From IMG/VR virus record IMGVR_UViG_2660238209_000013, positions 1 to 7,328 of that record: DNA of 7,328 nt, one strand, 5' to 3'. Shown here piece after piece: positions 1-7,328 of this stretch; the first letter of the stretch is position 1, and each line of letters starts with the position of its first letter. The translations under genes and the position numbers were made by a program. The notes beneath the pieces were generated by a model that saw nothing but the letters and a program-made list of their open reading frames with translations, did not search any database and was not told the DNA's origin. The stretch comes from a virus (Duplodnaviria; Heunggongvirae; Uroviricota; Caudoviricetes).

Positions 1-1341
1 CTGACCCTTTGCAGGGAAGCTGGGATACGTAACAGGATGATCCTGAAATCCCGCCAGATTGGGGCGACCTGGTATTGTGCACAGGAAGCTCTGCTGATGG
101 CGCTGCGTGACGATGTGGCGCAACCTTACCAGCGTAACCAGATTTTTTTGTCTGCGTCGCGTCGTCAGGCGTTCCAGTTTAAAAGCATTATTCAGAAGGC
201 TGCGGCTGAAGTTGATGTGGAGCTGAAAGGGGGCGATAAAATCATCCTCTCCAATGGCGCAGAGCTGCATTTTCTCGGCACTTCTGCTGCGTCGGCGCAG
301 TCCTATACGGGCAATTTTTATTTTGATGAATTTTTCTGGGTCAGTCGCTTTGCTGAACTGCGCAAGGTGGCTGGCGCTATGGCAACCCTCAGCGGACTGC
401 GGCGCACCTACTTCTCCACGCCATCCACCGAAACGCACGAAGCATACGCCTACTGGAACGGCGACCGCTGGAACGAGAAAAAGGCCACGCATAAACGCCG
501 GCGTTTTTCTGTGGACTGGAATACGCTGCATAACGGGCTTATCTGCCCTGACCGGACGTGGCGGCAAATTGTCACGCTGGAAGATGTGGTTAATCACGGC
601 TGGAAACACACCGATATCGACGAAATTCGTGATGAAAACACCGAAGACGAGTTCCTCAATCTCTATATGTGTGAGTTTGTCCGCGAAGGGGAATCGGCAT
701 TTAACCTGAATATCCTGATTGGCTGCGGTGTTGACGGATACGACGACTGGAAAGACTGGAAACCTTTTGCTCCCCGCCCGATGGGGAATCGTCCGGTATG
801 GATTGGGTATGACGCAAACGGCAGCAGTGGCAACGGCGACAGCGGCGCTGTGTCTGTGGTGGTTCCTCCGGCTGTTCCTGGTGGCCGTTTTCGAACGGTG
901 GAGACGCGACGCGTTCAGGGGCTGGAGTTTGAAGAACAGGCCAGAGTCATTGAAGAGTTCACGTGTCGCTACAACGTGGAACACATCGGCATTGATGTGA
1001 CGGGCGGGAACGGGGAGGCTGTTTATCAGATAGTGAAACGGTTTTTCCCTGCTGCTATTCCGTACACCTTCACGCTGTCATCAAAACGGTCGCTGGTACT
1101 GAAAATGCTGCAAATAATGCGTGCCGGGCGGTGGGAATACGATCGCGCCGAACGCGAGCTGGTCGCGGCCTTTAACGCCGTGCGTAAGGTGAAAACACCG
1201 GGCGGTTTTATCACTTACGAAACGGACCGCGCGAGGGGGATCAGCCACGGCGACCTTGCGTGGGCAACCATGCTTGCTGTCATTAACGAACCAATTGGCG
1301 GCGAAGGAGAAAACGAGCGTTTCACGGTTATGGAGTTCTGA
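1..1341 (+). CDS. P: Phage terminase large (ATPase/endonuclease) subunit, gpP-like; 5'-partial, the reading frame is open from base 1 so the gene starts upstream of the window
   Basis: Frame 1 has no stop from position 1 to the TGA at 1339-1341 (447 codons in window). The 434-aa ORF-track translation resembles the C-terminal nuclease region of P2-family terminase large subunits. Its stop overlaps the start of the next gene (ATGA at 1339-1343), as in the P2 PQ operon. Synteny is P-Q then accessory region then A. Identity from recall and synteny, not from a search. Confidence 0.8.
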   Translation: MTLCREAGIRNRMILKSRQIGATWYCAQEALLMALRDDVAQPYQRNQIFLSASRRQAFQFKSIIQKAAAEVDVELKGGDKIILSNGAELHFLGTSAASAQSYTGNFYFDEFFWVSRFAELRKVAGAMATLSGLRRTYFSTPSTETHEAYAYWNGDRWNEKKATHKRRRFSVDWNTLHNGLICPDRTWRQIVTLEDVVNHGWKHTDIDEIRDENTEDEFLNLYMCEFVREGESAFNLNILIGCGVDGYDDWKDWKPFAPRPMGNRPVWIGYDANGSSGNGDSGAVSVVVPPAVPGGRFRTVETRRVQGLEFEEQARVIEEFTCRYNVEHIGIDVTGGNGEAVYQIVKRFFPAAIPYTFTLSSKRSLVLKMLQIMRAGRWEYDRAERELVAAFNAVRKVKTPGGFITYETDRARGISHGDLAWATMLAVINEPIGGEGENERFTVMEF

Positions 1342-2387
1342 TGAGCAGAAAAAATAAAAAAGTGCGCATGAGTTCACGCATTGATCTCGCTGATGCGCTC
1401 AGGAAAGAATCGTCGCTCAGTGCATTCACTTTTGATGGTCCTTATCGCCTGACCGGGCATGATTTGCTGGACAATATGTACTGTGCTGATAACGGGCGGT
1501 GGTATGAAACCCCGGTGGACTGGTACGGTCTGGCAAGAGCCGCCCGGCAAACGTCCTGGCATCAGTCTGCGCTTTACTTTAAGCGCAATGTATTGCTCGG
1601 CTGCTATATTCCGCACCCGCTGCTTTCCCGGCAGGATTTCTCGGCGCTGGCGCTGGACTGGTTTGTGTTCGGTAACGCATACCTTGAGCTTCGAAGCAAT
1701 ATGCTCGGCGAACCGCTTAAATTACGGCACGCACTGGCGAAATACATGCGACGCGGAAGCGATCTTGAATCATGGTGGTATGTGCAGGATGGCAAGGACG
1801 CGTTTCAGTTTCGCCCTGGCAAAGTGTGCCACCTGATGAATCCGGATATTAACCAGGAAATCTACGGCATGCCGGAATATCTCGGCGCATTACTCTCGGC
1901 CAGCCTGTCTCATTCGGCGGACATGTTCAGAAAACTGTATTACGACAACGGATCCCACGCCGGGTGCATCATCTACATCGGTGCAGCGCAGGTAAACCGC
2001 GAAAGCATGGACTCCCTGAAAGAAACATTACAGGGTGCACGTGGTAGTGGTGCATTTAAAAACGTGCTCATTCATGCGCCCAACGGGGGCAAAGAGGGGG
2101 TGCAAATTTTGCCGTTCCAGCAGATCACCGCAAAAGATGAGTTCATGAATGTTAAGGCGGCATCCCGTGATGATGTGCTGGCTGCGCACCGTGTTCCGCC
2201 GCAACTGATGGGGGCGATGCCGGGCGAAAAAAGTGCGTTTGGTGATGTGGAGAAGGCCGCGCGGGTTTATGCAATTAACGAGCTGATGCCCGTTATGGAG
2301 GCCATGAAGCACATCAATGACTGGCTTGGCGAAGAGGTGATCCGTTTTAATTCTTATGCTCTTCTTGATGAAAAAACAGCCCCGTGA
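1341..2387 (+). CDS. Q: Phage portal (capsid portal) protein, gpQ-like
   Basis: 348-aa ORF, about the size of P2 gpQ (~344 aa). ATG at 1341 overlaps the terminase stop (ATGA). GGAG Shine-Dalgarno at 1332-1335, 5 nt upstream. Followed by a hairpin plus T-tract terminator overlapping its TGA stop. Identity from recall and synteny. Confidence 0.8.
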   Translation: MSRKNKKVRMSSRIDLADALRKESSLSAFTFDGPYRLTGHDLLDNMYCADNGRWYETPVDWYGLARAARQTSWHQSALYFKRNVLLGCYIPHPLLSRQDFSALALDWFVFGNAYLELRSNMLGEPLKLRHALAKYMRRGSDLESWWYVQDGKDAFQFRPGKVCHLMNPDINQEIYGMPEYLGALLSASLSHSADMFRKLYYDNGSHAGCIIYIGAAQVNRESMDSLKETLQGARGSGAFKNVLIHAPNGGKEGVQILPFQQITAKDEFMNVKAASRDDVLAAHRVPPQLMGAMPGEKSAFGDVEKAARVYAINELMPVMEAMKHINDWLGEEVIRFNSYALLDEKTAP

Positions 2388-2406
2388 TGGGGCTGTCCTT
2401 TTTACC
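2376..2406. terminator. Bidirectional rho-independent terminator between the convergent portal gene and the 174-aa gene
   Basis: Stem cagcccc (2377-2383) / ggggctg (2389-2395) with loop gtgat. It is flanked by an A-run upstream (aaaaaa, 2371-2376) and a T-run downstream (ccttttta, 2397-2404), so either strand gives hairpin plus U-tract. It overlaps the Q stop (2385-2387) and the TAA stop of the minus-strand gene (2402-2404). Confidence 0.6.
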
Positions 2407-2926
2407 AGAGTTGAACCATTTTCTGGGTGCCGTCAGGCTTGAGATTATCAATTTCAGAGAGAACGTAATATTGAATGGCTTCACAAACGGTGGTGTAGGG
2501 TGAATTACCTTCTTTAAGTGGCACGATATTATTATTAACGCGAACCTGTATTTCATCGTTATACATTGCGATCGAAAGAGGAGTATGCACGAAGGCGACT
2601 TCGCCAGGTGTGTCGTCAACCACTGTCTCAATGCTGAAAATCAGTTTTCGCTCATCATTGCCGCCCCTTGCTTTGGGGGTAGAGGCAGGAATCTGAGATA
2701 AAGGCATTCTGCGAAACCCTTCAGTTGTTTCCAGTCCGCATGAAACGTAATGCTGGCGATTACCGTCGCTATCAGTCCATGTCTGTGATGGCAGCTCCAG
2801 AGAGATTTCATAAGCATCTACAATTCCCTGAGCAAGGTGTACAAGCGGGGTCAGATCTTCATTGCGGCGAAAACTTTCCTTTACCTGCTCTCGTTTTTCT
2901 CGTAACTGCTTGTAATTAATGACCAT
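2402..2926 (-). CDS. Hypothetical protein, 174 aa, no family recognised; cargo gene in the Q-A accessory region
   Basis: ORF track gives 2402..2965 from a GTG. I prefer the internal ATG at 2924-2926 (protein begins MVINYKQLREK) because a GGAGG Shine-Dalgarno lies 8 nt upstream on the minus strand (AATGGAGGCTGTTTTATG). Ends with TAA at 2402-2404 inside the bidirectional terminator. Mixed-charge, globular-looking composition with no obvious transmembrane segment. Confidence 0.6.
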   Translation of the reverse strand: MVINYKQLREKREQVKESFRRNEDLTPLVHLAQGIVDAYEISLELPSQTWTDSDGNRQHYVSCGLETTEGFRRMPLSQIPASTPKARGGNDERKLIFSIETVVDDTPGEVAFVHTPLSIAMYNDEIQVRVNNNIVPLKEGNSPYTTVCEAIQYYVLSEIDNLKPDGTQKMVQLW

Positions 2927-3025
2927 AAAACAGCCTCCATTGATTTCTTTGCTCGTATTTTGCACTTATGAAGTGTGGTCGGCAAGGTGCCGCATCACTG
3001 ACGCGCTTCGCTTGTCTGCTGCTTC

Positions 3026-3054
3026 GCCGGGGCATAAAAAATTTATGCCCCGGC
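3026..3054. repeat. Perfect 13-bp inverted repeat with 3-nt spacer (gccggggcataaa aaa tttatgccccggc)
   Basis: Read directly: 3026-3038 is the exact reverse complement of 3042-3054. No U-tract follows on either strand, so this is not a classical intrinsic terminator. Candidate protein-binding palindrome or RNA hairpin. Confidence 0.85.
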
Positions 3055-3343
3055 TCTCCAGCTCCTGTATCAATCAGATAATTTCACGACGCCTTCCAGT
3101 TTATCGCCACCATCGACGGTCAGACTCTTACGCAATCCCACCGCGTTGACTGTATGTTCTCGCTGCCTCAGTGCGATTTTGACGGCCTTACCTTTCACCC
3201 CATCAAATCAAAAGCCCTCACGCCTTTTTCATGCTCAGCGTGAGAAATATGGCCATTCTGTTGTGTCTCTGCGACATCGTTCAGGGAATGCTGTTTACCC
3301 CCCTGAAACGCGGGCTGTTCCCCCGTCACCTGCGCGTAGAAAA

Positions 3344-3390
3344 AACGCGTTTTTTGTGCACGTACGGATCCTTGACGGATCCAGCCGCCA
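3344..3390. repeat. Cluster of short palindromes and a direct repeat (aaaaaacgcgtttttt; gtgcac; cgtacg; acggatcc ttg acggatcc)
   Basis: Read directly: aaaaaacgcgtttttt (3344-3359) is self-complementary. acggatcc occurs twice, 3 bp apart (3363-3370 and 3374-3381), each containing the palindrome ggatcc. Confidence 0.7.
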
Positions 3391-3425
3391 CGCGGGCCGG
3401 AAGTACAAAAAGTCGTTCAAAAAAA

Positions 3426-3455
3426 TTGTGCAAACTTGTGCACTATCGTGCAAAC
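3426..3455. repeat. Three GTGCA(A/C) repeats phased ~10 bp apart (ttgtgcaaac / ttgtgcac / cgtgcaaac); candidate iterons or operator
   Basis: GTGCAAAC at 3428-3435, GTGCAC at 3438-3443, GTGCAAAC at 3448-3455. The ~10-bp (one helical turn) spacing is typical of protein-binding iterons. A further GTGCAC is at 3355-3360. Confidence 0.5.
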
Positions 3456-3480
3456 AAAAAAAAGCGCCTTATCGGCGCTT
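3456..3480 (-). terminator. Rho-independent terminator of the 89-aa ORF transcript
   Basis: On the minus strand: stem aagcgcc / ggcgctt (plus-strand 3462-3468 and 3474-3480), 5-nt loop, followed by an 8-nt U-run (plus-strand A-run 3456-3463). It starts 9 bp downstream of the ORF stop (TGA, plus-strand 3489-3491). Confidence 0.65.
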
Positions 3481-3488
3481 CAAAAATA

Positions 3489-3758
3489 TCAATTGTTGCT
3501 GTGTATTAATCGCCAACCACGAACATATGCTTCATAAGCATCTCTGTGCCTTACAGTTCCAGCCTGGCTAAACGGAATGTTAGCTAAAACTAAATCATTC
3601 TGAGCCATAGCGCGTCCTTCAAGCGCATCTTTTATGCCTAGCTCAAAAGCACAGGCAGCGCATTTGTGCCGACCTTCTTGTCCTTGATATTCAGGGAGAG
3701 ACAGAAATGTTGGGTTATAACGATGAGGGTTCTTGCAAATACCTGTTTTAGCCCGCAC
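3489..3758 (-). CDS. Hypothetical small protein, 89 aa, GTG start; contains Cys8 and a CxxC at residues 33-36
   Basis: ORF with GTG start (plus-strand 3756-3758) preceded by a GAGGT Shine-Dalgarno 6 nt upstream (ATGAGGTAAATAAGTG) and an in-frame TAA immediately before the GTG. Followed by an intrinsic terminator. Preceded by a structured, terminator-like leader. No family recognised; coding status not certain. Confidence 0.4.
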   Translation of the reverse strand: MRAKTGICKNPHRYNPTFLSLPEYQGQEGRHKCAACAFELGIKDALEGRAMAQNDLVLANIPFSQAGTVRHRDAYEAYVRGWRLIHSNN

Positions 3759-3775
3759 TTTATTTACCTCATAGG

Positions 3776-3959
3776 AAAAATATGCGTGCCTTTACAGAGG
3801 TGCGTGTAAGCAATAAAATATACGACGCACATTTTGATTTACTTCGGAAGGCACGCATATCAGGTTAAGTGAGTCCGACCGAGTTCTACGCCCCAATAGT
3901 TGCTGCTATTGGGGCGTTTTGCATGGACAATGCCGCGCAATTATCTTGTCGCTCACAAT
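3776..3959 (-). ncRNA. Candidate structured 5' leader or small RNA upstream of the 89-aa ORF, ending in a terminator-like hairpin
   Basis: Minus-strand transcript predicted from the promoter at 3967-3994. It contains the antisense of a perfect 12-bp hairpin (3888-3917), then a 13-bp long-range stem (3780-3792 pairing 3848-3860) enclosing a 55-nt loop with its own 6-bp inner stem (gtgcgt 3800-3805 / acgcac 3825-3830). A run of 4 U follows (plus-strand A-run 3776-3779), then the SD and GTG of the 89-aa ORF. Read from sequence; no covariance or expression support. Confidence 0.3.
3888..3921 (+). terminator. Hairpin plus short T-run; possible plus-strand intrinsic terminator (or just a stable hairpin in the minus-strand leader)
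   Basis: Perfect 12-bp stem acgccccaatag (3888-3899) / ctattggggcgt (3906-3917), 6-nt loop, followed by ttt g (3918-3921). No convincing plus-strand promoter found upstream, so function on the plus strand is uncertain. Confidence 0.35.
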
Positions 3960-3966
3960 GCGAACG

Positions 3967-3994
3967 ATCTTACAAAAAGGCACATTACTGTCAA
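3967..3994 (-). promoter_or_regulatory. Strong sigma70-like promoter on the minus strand (TTGACA - 16 nt - TAAGAT) with AT-rich upstream region
   Basis: Minus-strand sequence attatcTTGACAgtaatgtgcctttttgTAAGATcgttcg. The -35 is a perfect TTGACA (plus-strand 3989-3994), spacer 16 nt, -10 TAAGAT (plus-strand 3967-3972). The upstream 60 bp is AT-rich (UP-element-like). A GATC (3966-3969) overlaps the -10. Confidence 0.5.
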
Positions 3995-4122
3995 GATAAT
4001 TGATCGTTTTAATCGATAGATAATAGACAATCTATTTGTTTAACAGATCGATTATTGAAGTAAGTGCGCCAAATGGAATGATACTGTTTCTATAAATGTG
4101 AGCATTTTTCGCGCAGATGCTT

Positions 4123-4434
4123 TTACTCAGGAAATAACGCCCGGATATTCCCAGCCATCTGGCTGGTTATCTTAGCCACTGGTGCAGACTGTGCTTCAAA
4201 CTTTTTTGAGCTGATTTGTGTCACAGGTAACATCTCATCATCAGCCCATGCGGCCAGTCGGTAAGCCTCTGCCGGATTCGTCTTCAGAAGTGCCAGCCCG
4301 GCCAGAAAAGCCACGCGTTGGCCGCTTTTGCGGGCTTCTGGTGTAAGGCTGTCCAGCCAGGCGCATGCTTCTCCTTCGTTCTTGACGGCAGCTGGCTTCA
4401 GATAGAAACTTATTCTTCTGGTTGGTGTCGTCAT
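4123..4434 (-). CDS. parR: ParR/StbB-like small DNA-binding protein (putative centromere-binding adaptor), 103 aa
   Basis: Immediately downstream of the ParM-like gene (4-nt gap). Strong AAGGAG Shine-Dalgarno 7 nt upstream of the ATG, inside the end of the upstream gene. Size and motifs (N-terminal RRISFYLKP, AGLAL, C-terminal LFPE) resemble plasmid R1 ParR as I recall it. Gene order repeats-parM-parR matches R1 parC-parM-parR. Confidence 0.7.
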   Translation of the reverse strand: MTTPTRRISFYLKPAAVKNEGEACAWLDSLTPEARKSGQRVAFLAGLALLKTNPAEAYRLAAWADDEMLPVTQISSKKFEAQSAPVAKITSQMAGNIRALFPE

Positions 4435-4438
4435 TGGT

Positions 4439-5398
4439 TTACTCCTTGTTCATTGCGTACAGCCCATTAACCAGAGCAAAATGTGGCACCCCGTCCGTGA
4501 TGAAAGTCGCATTAACTCCGCAGGCTTCGCGGATAGCGGGTGCCACAATCTCCGCCCCTCCACCGACAACCATCACCCGCCCGTAACCGGAAAAACCCGC
4601 CAGCGCGCGGATCACTCGTTGTTTCAGTGTCTCCTCCTTTTCACGAATAACCGCCATCAGGCTGTTGTAATGCGCGTCATTGTGAATGTGCTGGCGCAGC
4701 CAGGCTTCATCGTGACGGTGCTCAATAATGGTATTGGCGATGTGGTGACTGGTACGCATACCGTTAGTGGCCATCACCGACAGCACGGCATCAGCCATCA
4801 GGGAAACGCCTACGTGTGGATCGCAAAACACCTGGCTGATACCTGCCAGCTGCCCCTGAACCTTTGCCACATCCAGCGTGGTTCCGCCCAAATCCACAAT
4901 CAGCAGGGATTCAAACGGACTCATGTCAGCCAGTGCCTTAAAGCCAGCCGGAATGGATTCAGGCATAACCCGCACGTTACGGATAGTGAATGCTTCGCCG
5001 TTCTGGTACTCCACCGGGCGCATAACGTTCGCTTTTTTGCGGTTGATGTTGGCTATGTCCGGCTGTGCGTTTGTGTCGAAATACTCGCTCAGTGGCAGGG
5101 TGACAACCACATCCACCTCCTGTGGCGTGATGCCTGATTTGACCAGCGCGTGATGAATGGCAATGACATTCACATCACTGTATTGGTATTGCGTGTCGGT
5201 CGTCTGGACAAAGCGATCGCTGACCGGATCAAAACCATAGCGCACGCCATCAAGCATGTAGTTCGCGGGCTGCGTGCCACCGAACGGCGCAGACCATTCC
5301 GACTTGAAGCTGTTCGGGCTGATGGCGTTGCGGCGTTCGCCGTTCTCAGTCCATGCCAGCTTGATGTTGGTGGAGCCGTCGTCGATACAAATTTTCAT
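4439..5398 (-). CDS. parM: ParM/StbA-family actin-like segregation ATPase, 319 aa
   Basis: ATG at plus-strand 5396-5398 with an AAGGA Shine-Dalgarno ~8 nt upstream. The translation carries the ParM/actin-fold signatures throughout: N-terminal DDGSTNIKL (phosphate-1), SPNSF, YSDVNVIAIHHAL, VMPESIPAG, IVDLGGTTLD (phosphate-2), GGGAE (adenosine motif) and C-terminal LVNG. It appears collinear with plasmid R1 ParM over the full length (from memory). Confidence 0.88.
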   Translation of the reverse strand: MKICIDDGSTNIKLAWTENGERRNAISPNSFKSEWSAPFGGTQPANYMLDGVRYGFDPVSDRFVQTTDTQYQYSDVNVIAIHHALVKSGITPQEVDVVVTLPLSEYFDTNAQPDIANINRKKANVMRPVEYQNGEAFTIRNVRVMPESIPAGFKALADMSPFESLLIVDLGGTTLDVAKVQGQLAGISQVFCDPHVGVSLMADAVLSVMATNGMRTSHHIANTIIEHRHDEAWLRQHIHNDAHYNSLMAVIREKEETLKQRVIRALAGFSGYGRVMVVGGGAEIVAPAIREACGVNATFITDGVPHFALVNGLYAMNKE

Positions 5399-5427
5399 GT
5401 CGCTTTTCCTTATGTTGATTAATTAAT

Positions 5428-5541
5428 CGTTTACGGGATTCTGAAATCCCGTTTTTGCCTGTTTTGTGCGCGCTTCATATATCGCTGCGCGTTTTTTGCT
5501 CATTTACGGGATTCGTGAGTCCCGTTTCTGTCTGTTTTTTG
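5428..5541. repeat. Two ~40-bp direct repeats, each containing an 8-bp-arm palindrome (acgggatt ... aatcccgt) followed by a T-rich tract; candidate parC-like centromere or operator
   Basis: Copy 1 tttacgggattctgaaatcccgtttttgcctgttttgtg (5430-5468) and copy 2 tttacgggattcgtgagtcccgtttctgtctgttttttg (5503-5541) are ~80% identical, 73 bp apart. Copy 1 lies between the A stop and the parM start; copy 2 lies inside the last ~25 codons of the A reading frame. Confidence 0.5.
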
Positions 5542-6916
5542 TTTCCACTGGTCAGGCCACCCTGCAGCAGGTCTGCTTTGCGGCTGGCGCGTTCAGTGGT
5601 TTCACTGATTCTCTGTGCGTGCTCTGCGTCGCGGATGGCGCGCAGCATGTCAGAAAGCACGGTAACGGGTGTTTTCATGGTGTTCTGATCCTGCTGAAGT
5701 GCGGATGCCAGGCGTGCGGCGGCTTCGGGGTCTGATGCCCCCAGCTGTGCCAGATAGCTGGCGACCGGGTTATGGCGGATCTCCGTGCTGCTTACGCCGT
5801 GATTACGGCTCAGGTGCTGCCAGAGCTGCGTGATTCGGCTGTCCGGGCGGGGATCCGGTTTGCGTACAATTTCATATCCCTGCGGTGCAATGATGCTGCC
5901 GTCAACGTACAGGCTGCCGCCCCGTAGCAGGTGCTGCATCTGCTGTTCACCGATATGCAGGCCGAGAGATTCGGCAGACTCCCGCCATTCTTTAGCGAGT
6001 AATTCGTGGTTATCAGGCAAAGGCCGCTGCTGTTTGCGGCTCTGTGTCCAGCTCTGCATTTCATCACTGCTGTTTTTTGCCTGTTTGTCACGAAGCGAAC
6101 GCATCAGCGCCCGGCGTTCGTGCCGTTTCAGTGAGCGCATCCATTCGTTCACTTCAACGCCGTCAGGGAGCTGCGGCCACGGTGCTGGCCGTTCTTCCGG
6201 CTGTTCTGCCCCGTTGTTGTCCGTTTCCTGTACACGGGGACAGTTATTGCCACGAGTCCAAGGGGCGGCAGGGCCGCCCTGAAGGTCAAAACCATTTTCG
6301 CGGGCGCTGTCTTCCGTTTCCGGTTTACGTCTTACCAGTTTCCAGTTATCCGGATGCGTGCACACACGGGAGGATTCCCCGATGAGTGGTGACCAGATCC
6401 CGTAAATCTGTACGCTCTGTTCGCCGTAATCATTCAGCTCATCTGCGAGGTCGTAGGCGGTGCGAATCAGGTAGTCTTTGCGTGGAACAAGTACGCCGCC
6501 CTGTTTTTCAATGTAGGTGGCAAAACACCCGGCATCGGCGGCAGCGAGTACCGCATCCATTGCATCATCTTTCAGCCGTTGCGGGCCTTCCGGATTGCGT
6601 GCCATCTGGCTGGCAAGGCGGCGCAGTTCACGCCACACCTGACGGGAGGGGATGCCAAAGAACTGGAACTGACGGACCCGGTGAAGGCGCGCCCAGCCGA
6701 TGGCGCGCTCCACGCTCTCGGCCATTGATTTTCCGGTTTCGTGGTCAACGCGTGGCTTGCCCGTTTTCGGGTCGATGCCATCCACGGCGCGGCTGTCCAG
6801 GTTCTTTCCGATGTAGGTGGCGATGTAGCTGGTTGGTGTGCCTTTTGAGCCGTCGACATACTCCGCCTTAAAACGCGGAGTTATGTCATCGCCCAGCTCG
6901 TGGCGGTCCTCCTGAA
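5475..6916 (-). pseudogene. A: 3' portion of a gpA-like rolling-circle replication initiator (phage replication endonuclease), N-terminal part removed by IS insertion
   Basis: The minus-strand frame is open from the IS boundary (~6917) to the stop at 5475-5477 (ORF track starts at GTG 6785 but no stop intervenes upstream). I translated the sequence just inside the boundary as ...GSKGTPTSYIATYIGKNLDSRAVDGIDPK..., which contains a Y-x-x-x-Y-x-x-K motif (codons at plus-strand 6813-6827) like the paired catalytic tyrosines of P2 A and phiX174 gene A proteins. The frame runs straight into the IS terminal repeat. Position opposite Q across the accessory region matches P2 gene order. Confidence 0.65.
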
Positions 6917-6970
6917 TGAACCGCCCCGGAAATCCTGGAGACTAAACTCCCTGAGAAAGAGGTAAACAGG

Positions 6971-7297
6971 ATGACTAAAAATACTCGTTTTTCCCCCGAA
7001 GTCCGTCAGCGGGCGATTCGTATGGTTCTGGAAAGTCAGGATGAATATGACTCACAGTGGGCGGCAATTTGTTCCATTGCCCCAAAGATTGGCTGTACGC
7101 CGGAGACTCTGCGTGTCTGGGTTCGCCAGCATGAGCGGGATACCGGGGGCGGTGATGGTGGGCTCACCAGCGCTGAACGTCAGCGTCTGAAAGAGCTGGA
7201 ACGTGAAAATCGTGAACTGCGCCGCAGTAACGATATCCTTCGCCAGGCTTCCGCTTATTTTGCGAAGGCGGAGTTCGACCGCCTCTGGAAAAAATGA
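6971..7297 (+). CDS. IS3-family transposase OrfA (helix-turn-helix / leucine-zipper subunit), 108 aa
   Basis: Complete ORF. Protein [23 protein letters not shown]...[36 protein letters not shown] has the typical IS3-family OrfA HTH plus coiled-coil and a C-terminus ending at the frameshift window. AGG Shine-Dalgarno-like GAGG at 6958-6961. Confidence 0.9.
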
Positions 7298-7328
7298 TGC
7301 CACTGCTGGATAAGCTGCGTGAGCAGTA
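7294..7328 (+). CDS. IS3-family transposase OrfB (DDE catalytic subunit), 5' end only; expressed by -1 frameshift from orfA
   Basis: ATGATGCCACTGCTGGATAAGCTGCGTGAGCAG (7294 onward) translates [11 protein letters not shown], which matches the IS629-type OrfB N-terminus as I recall it. It is in the -1 frame relative to orfA and overlaps its stop. Runs off the window. Confidence 0.7.

Follow-up and report, generated by a model that had tools for sequence, protein, structure and literature searches.

A ParM/ParR-type partition cassette as a fixed part of the P88-like prophage backbone

The type II partition systems of the R1/R100 and IncI plasmids (ParMRC, also StbA/StbB) consist of parM followed after a tiny gap by parR, with repeats upstream of parM; in R1 these repeats, parC, form two blocks of 11-bp iterons. 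The C-terminal peptide of R1 ParR docks onto ParM. Among phages, D6 (91 kb) encodes a 'StbA type plasmid stability protein', and D6 is a P1-like phage-plasmid that lysogenises extrachromosomally. An actin-like module of an integrated prophage is known from CGP3 of Corynebacterium glutamicum, which has the actin-like protein AlpC, the adaptor AlpA and alpS; AlpA binds upstream of its own operon, induction of AlpC/AlpA is early, and the circular phage DNA depends on them to replicate efficiently (Donovan et al. 2015, PMC4446434). In P2-like phages the interval between genes A and Q, where old/tin-type cargo is found, is a defence hotspot (Rousset et al. 2022). Here we describe a cassette of the ParMRC kind that lies in this interval in a P2-family prophage of E. 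coli, at positions 4123-5398 on the minus strand of a viral stretch of 7,328 bases (IMG/VR record IMGVR_UViG_2660238209_000013, positions 1 to 7,328; hereafter the window). A first-pass annotation made from the sequence alone had proposed a ParM/ParR module at this place, and it is compared below with the described systems.

The identity of the cassette as a ParM/ParR partition module is near certain. Family searches with both proteins gave significant matches to ParM/StbA and ParR/StbB, and the proposed gene order, the spacing of 4 nt between the parM stop and the parR ATG, the open reading frame (ORF) coordinates and the position between gene A and the portal gene Q of a P2-like prophage were all found exactly as annotated. 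The product of parM (4439-5398, minus strand) is a partition ATPase of 319 aa with an actin fold and belongs to the R1 ParM/StbA family. Pfam StbA_N (PF06406, E 3.5e-82) and the ParM C-terminal domain (PF21523, E 2.5e-67) cover the protein end to end, plasmid R1 ParM (PDB 1mwk) aligns over residues 2-316 with E 3.5e-92, and the PHROGs match is phrog_691, 'partition protein' (E 1e-89). Like the R1 and IncI ParMs, which match it over the full length at 46-52% identity, the protein has all the nucleotide-binding motifs: in the alignment with R1 the four phosphate- and adenosine-binding motifs DDGSTNIK, MPESIPAG, DLGGTTLD and GGGAE are intact, which bears out the full motif set claimed for it. The Pfam ALP_N model stayed below threshold on ParM (25.1 bits, E 2.3e-5; the cut-off is 26.3 bits), and the protein is not a member of the Alp family. 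In 12 of 12 sampled related loci parM is intact, with a median dN/dS of 0.074 at a median dS of 0.08. parM is thus under strong purifying selection, and because this selection acts in an integrating phage, the cassette must do something for the phage.

parR (4123-4434, minus strand) encodes a 103-aa adaptor that consists of an N-terminal DNA-binding part of the ribbon-helix-helix type, a hypervariable linker and a C-terminal AGNIRALFPE motif. Residues 6-71 match Pfam Plasmid_stab_B (StbB/ParR, PF10784, E 9.8e-24), and the protein falls into phrog_2515, 'partition protein' (E 2e-59); a sequence search of the PDB with ParR gave no match. By sequence, then, a small ParR/StbB adaptor with an N-terminal DNA-binding domain stands directly downstream of parM, its fold being left unconfirmed by an AF2 model of low confidence (mean pLDDT 57), in which residues 20-29, 32-52, 54-61 and 86-100 form helices and 63-86 are disordered; the model is compatible with the proposed architecture and proves nothing. 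The window ParR was aligned with those of an R1-type IncF plasmid, two IncI plasmids, an integrative conjugative element and an integrated plasmid. The N-terminal RRISFYLKP strand and the helices next to it are common to the whole set, and across 18 homologues no residue from R6 to P14 varies. With the R1 and IncI proteins the phage ParR shares the N-terminal R(R/K)xSFxLxP strand, the ER...RAA..AGLAL helices and the C-terminal (K/R)xNAxxL(F/I) motif. The C-terminal motif of the phage proteins, (K/G)NI(R/Q)xxFPE, aligns with the C-terminal KKNAMKLIN of R1-type ParR, and N96, I97, F101 and P102 are invariant; the motif is a putative site of ParM docking. In contrast to the plasmid ParRs of 116-140 aa, the E. 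coli phage protein is the shortest of the aligned set and is without the TTxxDI..I.S..P segment that is found in plasmid and other phage-linked ParRs.

The two genes vary very differently among the same prophage loci, ParR being 42-100% identical as against 96.5-98.4% for ParM. Synonymous divergence between the parR alleles is also high, with a dS of about 0.44 over the N-terminal part, and in comparisons of the related loci L002-L014 similarity at the DNA level is interrupted near window positions 4380 and 4289. Besides the hypervariable linker, the N-terminal part has at least two old types of allele. The high synonymous divergence indicates that old parR alleles have been exchanged by recombination, with breakpoints near these two positions.

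The distribution of the cassette was surveyed in phage, genome and plasmid records. Phage P88, an inducible and integrating phage (Xuanwuvirus, Peduoviridae), has the order A, parM, parR, a few small genes and Q, as in the window, and the isolated phage phiSM also carries the cassette. The 14 phage records with the cassette are exactly the 14 with the P88-type 3' half of gene A, and in every one of them it forms a fixed block after gene A, which is at odds with the accessory-cargo status, similar to that of old/tin, first assigned to it. Elsewhere among 50,697 phage records a ParM homologue was found only in D6, full length and 47% identical. The cassette is present in 1303 of 5426 complete E. 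coli genomes (about 24%), where RefSeq names its products 'plasmid segregation protein ParM' and 'plasmid partitioning/stability family protein', and at least 80% of it is kept in 1278 of the 1303. Nearly all of its places in these genomes are chromosomal (1449 of 1451), the remaining two being on plasmids. For ParR variants of 42-55% identity, contig look-ups always returned the 940-aa gene A product, the 76-nt gap, parM, parR, differing genes and Q. Since the genes beyond parR differ while A-parM-parR is fixed, the variable hotspot begins after parR. The cassette is a fixed backbone block linked to the P88-type gene A, not variable cargo. Old/tin and the other hotspot cargo share with it the A-Q interval, and it was counted among the hotspot systems (Rousset et al. 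2022), but parMR is fixed beside gene A and is not a recognised defence system, the variable cargo lying between parR and Q.

The survey of P2-like prophages that the first-pass annotation had called for found the same cassette at the same locus outside E. coli as well. ParM homologues stand after gene A and before Q in P2-like prophages of Plesiomonas (63% identity), Hafnia (61%), Serratia (58%) and Enterobacter (54%). Chromosomal ParM homologues at about 50% identity belong to one conjugative element and one integrated plasmid. More than 5000 plasmid records contain a ParM homologue, all at 52% identity or less except for six records above 95%; those plasmid records among the matches that were inspected all contain P88-like phage DNA, one being a mislabelled chromosome. 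A neighbour-joining tree places the phage-linked ParMs in two clades, one of E. coli, Hafnia and Plesiomonas and one of Serratia and Enterobacter, each with 100% bootstrap. To judge from these sequence comparisons, the association of ParM with P2-family phages is old. A contig search with a single ParM gave only three near-identical loci; the diverged relatives come from protein searches followed by look-ups of the contigs.

As a sequence finding the cassette is nothing new. RefSeq, PHROGs and the 2022 paper cover its annotation, so that the novelty for the phage family claimed at first does not stand: it is already annotated in the 1303 E. coli genomes and is present in P88 and phiSM. It was reported in 'around a fourth of P2-like phages' in the gpA-gpQ interval, with plasmid maintenance as the proposed function (Rousset et al. 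2022), and was listed as a fitness gene in phiSM (Magaziner et al. 2019).

Some copies in other assemblies are unusual. A 226-kb contig labelled Vagococcus sp. WN89Y (NZ_JBQPOM010000071.1) encodes a ParM 97% identical to that of the E. coli prophages; this Firmicute occurrence is probably enterobacterial contamination or a mislabelled assembly. In locus L011 (8309-8437), as well as in L012 and L013, a 42-aa ORF directly after parR is similar to ParM residues 87-111 (72% over 25 aa, with a weak StbA_N match), and by this similarity it looks like the remnant of a second parM copy. Locus L014, on a 29-kb contig, has a second, frameshifted parM-parR pair (14737-15831) about 7 kb from the intact one, amid rearranged tail genes and an insertion sequence (IS), and the parR beside its intact parM also looks frameshifted.

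Two 42-nt repeats precede parM, and the repeats noted earlier at 5428-5541 are real. The proximal copy (5427-5468) lies in the 76-nt gap between A and parM and holds the palindrome ACGGGATTCTGAAATCCCGT at 5433-5452, while the distal copy (5500-5541) lies within the last codons of gene A and holds its palindrome at 5506-5525. The copies share 81% identity at a spacing of 73 nt, and each includes a 20-bp palindrome of the form ACGGGA-N8-TCCCGT, a pattern which in the 35.8-kb P88 genome is found at these two sites only (0.07 expected). In 13 related loci the palindrome arms hardly vary, most of the substitutions being in the loop. In the Plesiomonas prophage this position is taken by a pair of 26-nt repeats with another sequence and a spacing of 72 nt; a site analogous to the proximal repeat is present there and in the Hafnia version, and the Serratia and Enterobacter versions show a large inverted repeat at the corresponding place. 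The two palindromic repeats are a putative ParR binding site, the proximal one a candidate parC/operator and the distal one a second candidate site. Repeats upstream of parM are likewise found in R1, although the window site is made of two 20-bp palindromes 73 nt apart instead of two blocks of 11-bp iterons.

Expression signals around the repeats are sparse. The translation start region of parM (5407-5426, minus strand) has a Shine-Dalgarno sequence, AAGGA, at 5411-5407, preceded by an AT-rich element, TTAATTAATCAA, at 5426-5415, which appears as ATTAATCAA in the Plesiomonas and Hafnia versions; any promoter role of this element is conjecture from its sequence. A promoter scan found no sigma-70 consensus promoter between or after the repeats, upstream of parM, and no terminator-like site was found on the minus strand between A and parM. 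Gene A stands upstream of parM in the same orientation, from which parMR would be the tail of the early/replication operon. Because the cassette comes directly after gene A in this early operon and no separate consensus promoter was detected, its co-production with the replication proteins is most likely.

With the parts of a ParMRC system present, among them a candidate ParR site, under selection and ending the replication operon, a role on free phage circles is favoured: the cassette is probably, though by no means certainly, an intact type II ParMRC-like part of the P88-like backbone that segregates free circular phage genomes after infection or induction. Of the functions first suggested, the positioning of phage DNA around infection or induction is the one that remains, and on the sequence evidence it is the most plausible. 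A mechanism can be proposed in which parMR would be expressed along with the replication proteins once infection or induction has taken place; ParR dimers would bind the two palindromic repeats straddling the end of gene A, the conserved C-terminal ParR peptide would capture the ends of ATP-ParM filaments, and the growing filaments would push sister DNA molecules apart. ParMR would in this way distribute the free phage circles through the cell, or to the two daughter cells, ahead of integration or packaging, and would not serve the permanent plasmid maintenance of the prophage. P2 replication from gene A yields monomeric double-stranded circles, and such circles could be a plasmid-like substrate for a ParMRC spindle. 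Binding of ParR to the repeats, expression timing and biological role are here inferred from gene order and motifs. The closest functional analogue is CGP3 AlpAC, which also pairs an actin-like filament protein with an adaptor from an integrated prophage; it differs in actin-like family, host phylum and phage type, and it is backed by experiment whereas the window module is known from sequence. If true, the segregation of free circles would extend the AlpAC precedent to the best-studied temperate myovirus family of enterobacteria and would bear on how lysogeny is set up and inherited.

Several points weigh against this proposal. Upstream of parM the R1-like 11-bp periodicity is absent (autocorrelation 0.33 at lag 11 versus 0.46 for the R1 type), and a reading of the region as R1-style iterons was rejected on that account. 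On the plus strand, antisense to A and parM, the palindromes at 5433-5452 and 5506-5525 together with T-rich runs score as intrinsic-terminator-like hairpins. Because an R1-type parC and a consensus promoter are missing and these hairpins score on the opposite strand, the status of the repeats as a ParR site is a matter of interpretation. The E. coli ParR is without the helix-forming segment of the plasmid ParRs, and the assembly of its complex with DNA might be altered. Expression of parMR in the lysogen may also occur. A single origin of all phage-linked ParMs was considered and set aside, the union of the two clades having only 36% bootstrap. Finally, experimental or functional work on the module was not found in the literature on P88, CP-933T, Xuanwuvirus, or phage-plasmids and Peduoviridae.

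Rousset et al. (2022) suggested in print that the cassette would keep P88-like phages as stably inherited extrachromosomal prophages, and the extrachromosomal state was also among the first suggestions made for the window. The completeness of this plasmid-type partition system speaks for such a lifestyle, as do the ParM homologue in D6 and pZ1323PEC0009-2, a 34.5-kb circular 'plasmid' record that consists of a whole P88-like genome. This lone record is the only genuine circle found, and could equally be an excised replicating phage captured by assembly. The other candidates dissolve: the record of phage 520873 is linear, an excerpt of a prophage with host yecA in it, a Shigella 'plasmid' of 26.7 kb is a linear, IS-ridden prophage piece, and the 439-kb 'plasmid' pNJS001-2 (NZ_CP114132.1) carries the core genes fliC, fliA, yecA, araFGH and otsAB around its P88-like prophage and is probably a mis-assigned chromosome segment, so that counts of 'plasmid-borne' prophages need care. 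Neither an extrachromosomal prophage as the regular state nor plasmid-type replication and copy control independent of integration was found. The window itself is chromosomal prophage DNA, not an autonomously replicating plasmid as in R1 and IncI, its cassette standing after gene A of an integrating P2-family phage; the product of gene A is a replication endonuclease of the P2 nicking type, and the annotation of the P88 genome lists no replication initiator of a plasmid type. Unlike D6, the P88-like phages carry an integrase, which P88 and all its relatives have kept, and are almost always chromosomal. Because virtually all copies are integrated and the integrase is kept, stable plasmid maintenance is disfavoured, and we regard it as unlikely. 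A dual mode, in which P88-like phages integrate and ParMRC in addition segregates the gene-A circles, leading to a facultative heritable plasmid or carrier state or making lysogens of both daughters, is doubtful; if true, it would place a mitotic-like step in an integrating phage of about a quarter of complete E. coli genomes.

The remaining readings fare worse than the segregation of free circles. That the ParM/ParR of a prophage hinders incoming phages, or plasmids with related ParMRC, by exclusion, defence or incompatibility would fit the known defence hotspot in which the cassette lies and the far greater divergence of ParR than of ParM, a pattern sometimes seen in conflict systems. Yet ParM, ParR and the two downstream ORFs gave no PADLOC match at E <=0.1, leaving the defensive role first suggested without support; the cassette is the invariant part of the interval, with all 14 records of P88-type gene A having it and the variable cargo beyond parR, so that no swapped, variable presence is seen; and the variation of ParR is mostly in the linker, the DNA-binding strand and the C-terminal motif being invariant. 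Cross-talk with plasmid systems is unlikely because plasmid ParMs are at most 52% identical, and a defensive function is on the whole very unlikely. The listing of the cassette as a fitness gene in phiSM could instead mean a benefit for the host, the cassette being expressed in the lysogen, acting on the chromosomal parC copy and aiding segregation of that chromosome region ('fitness factor', Magaziner et al. 2019); it would agree with this that the listed genomes of the O111 lineage, which are near-identical, keep the cassette intact although the prophage is defective. With no promoter of its own detected, a strict tie to phage gene A rather than to host lineages, and integration sites that vary between btuC (window genome) and yecA (two others), such a benefit seems highly improbable. 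Decay of the whole lineage into a relic with no current function is suggested by the defective window prophage and by the fragmentary or frameshifted copies elsewhere, but for the lineage this already stands in contradiction to the data on selection: dN/dS is 0.074 with 12 of 12 sampled copies intact, 1278 of 1303 genomes keep at least 80% of the cassette, and synteny is kept across genera at 54-63% ParM identity. A functionless lineage is hardly credible.

The source prophage must be distinguished from the lineage in this respect. Over its 7328 bases the window matches the chromosome of E. coli O111:NM FWSEC0005 at 100% identity, and other O111 strains match it at 99.9%. In the RefSeq annotation the prophage of the window genome is of the P2 family, adjoins btuC, and has the head, tail and lysis genes of the P2 type in full. 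According to the same annotation IS1203 interrupts gene A and the integrase is shortened, which makes the prophage defective. It is a P88-like prophage (Xuanwuvirus, P2 family) of E. coli O111 that has decayed. Since this prophage cannot replicate, the window cassette is probably an intact relic, a passenger with no replicon left to move.

The window has several other features. The terminase gene P (37-1341, plus strand) is truncated by the window edge and is followed by the portal gene Q (1341-2387, plus strand). Two small ORFs of unassigned function lie between Q and parR on the minus strand. That adjoining the portal gene (2402-2965) encodes 187 aa (174 aa in RefSeq), belongs to phrog_5091 of unknown function (E 9e-67) and had no match in Pfam, NCBIfam or PADLOC. 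The other, of 89 aa (3758-3489; phrog_3941, unknown function, no PADLOC match), is part of a self-contained small transcription unit at 3461-3994 on the minus strand, with a promoter-like site at 3994-3967 (TTGACA, 16 nt, TAAGAT; 10/12 matches) and a terminator-like hairpin with a T-run at 3481-3461. This unit is the true variable cargo of the A-Q hotspot.

Upstream of the cassette, the 3' part of replication gene A (5475-6917, minus strand; phrog_6857/phrog_91, 'nicking at origin of replication') is a pseudogene in RefSeq, interrupted by IS1203. The start of this IS3-family element occupies 6918-7328, its orfA beginning at 6971 and an ALIL frameshift pseudoknot at 7252 (Rfam RF01497, 66.7 bits). 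The versions of the P2 cos and P2 ori nick sequences that served as queries had no match in the window with up to 3 mismatches allowed. Inside gene A, at about 6220-6281 on the minus strand, some 50-60 nt are kept at 85-90% identity in the otherwise diverged P2-like phages of Klebsiella, Salmonella and Yersinia; the stretch holds the hairpin GGGCGGCCCTGCCGCCC and then CTTGGACTCGTGGCAATAA. It presumably resembles the P2 ori nick region, a likeness that the nick-site search did not confirm, and it may be the replication origin.

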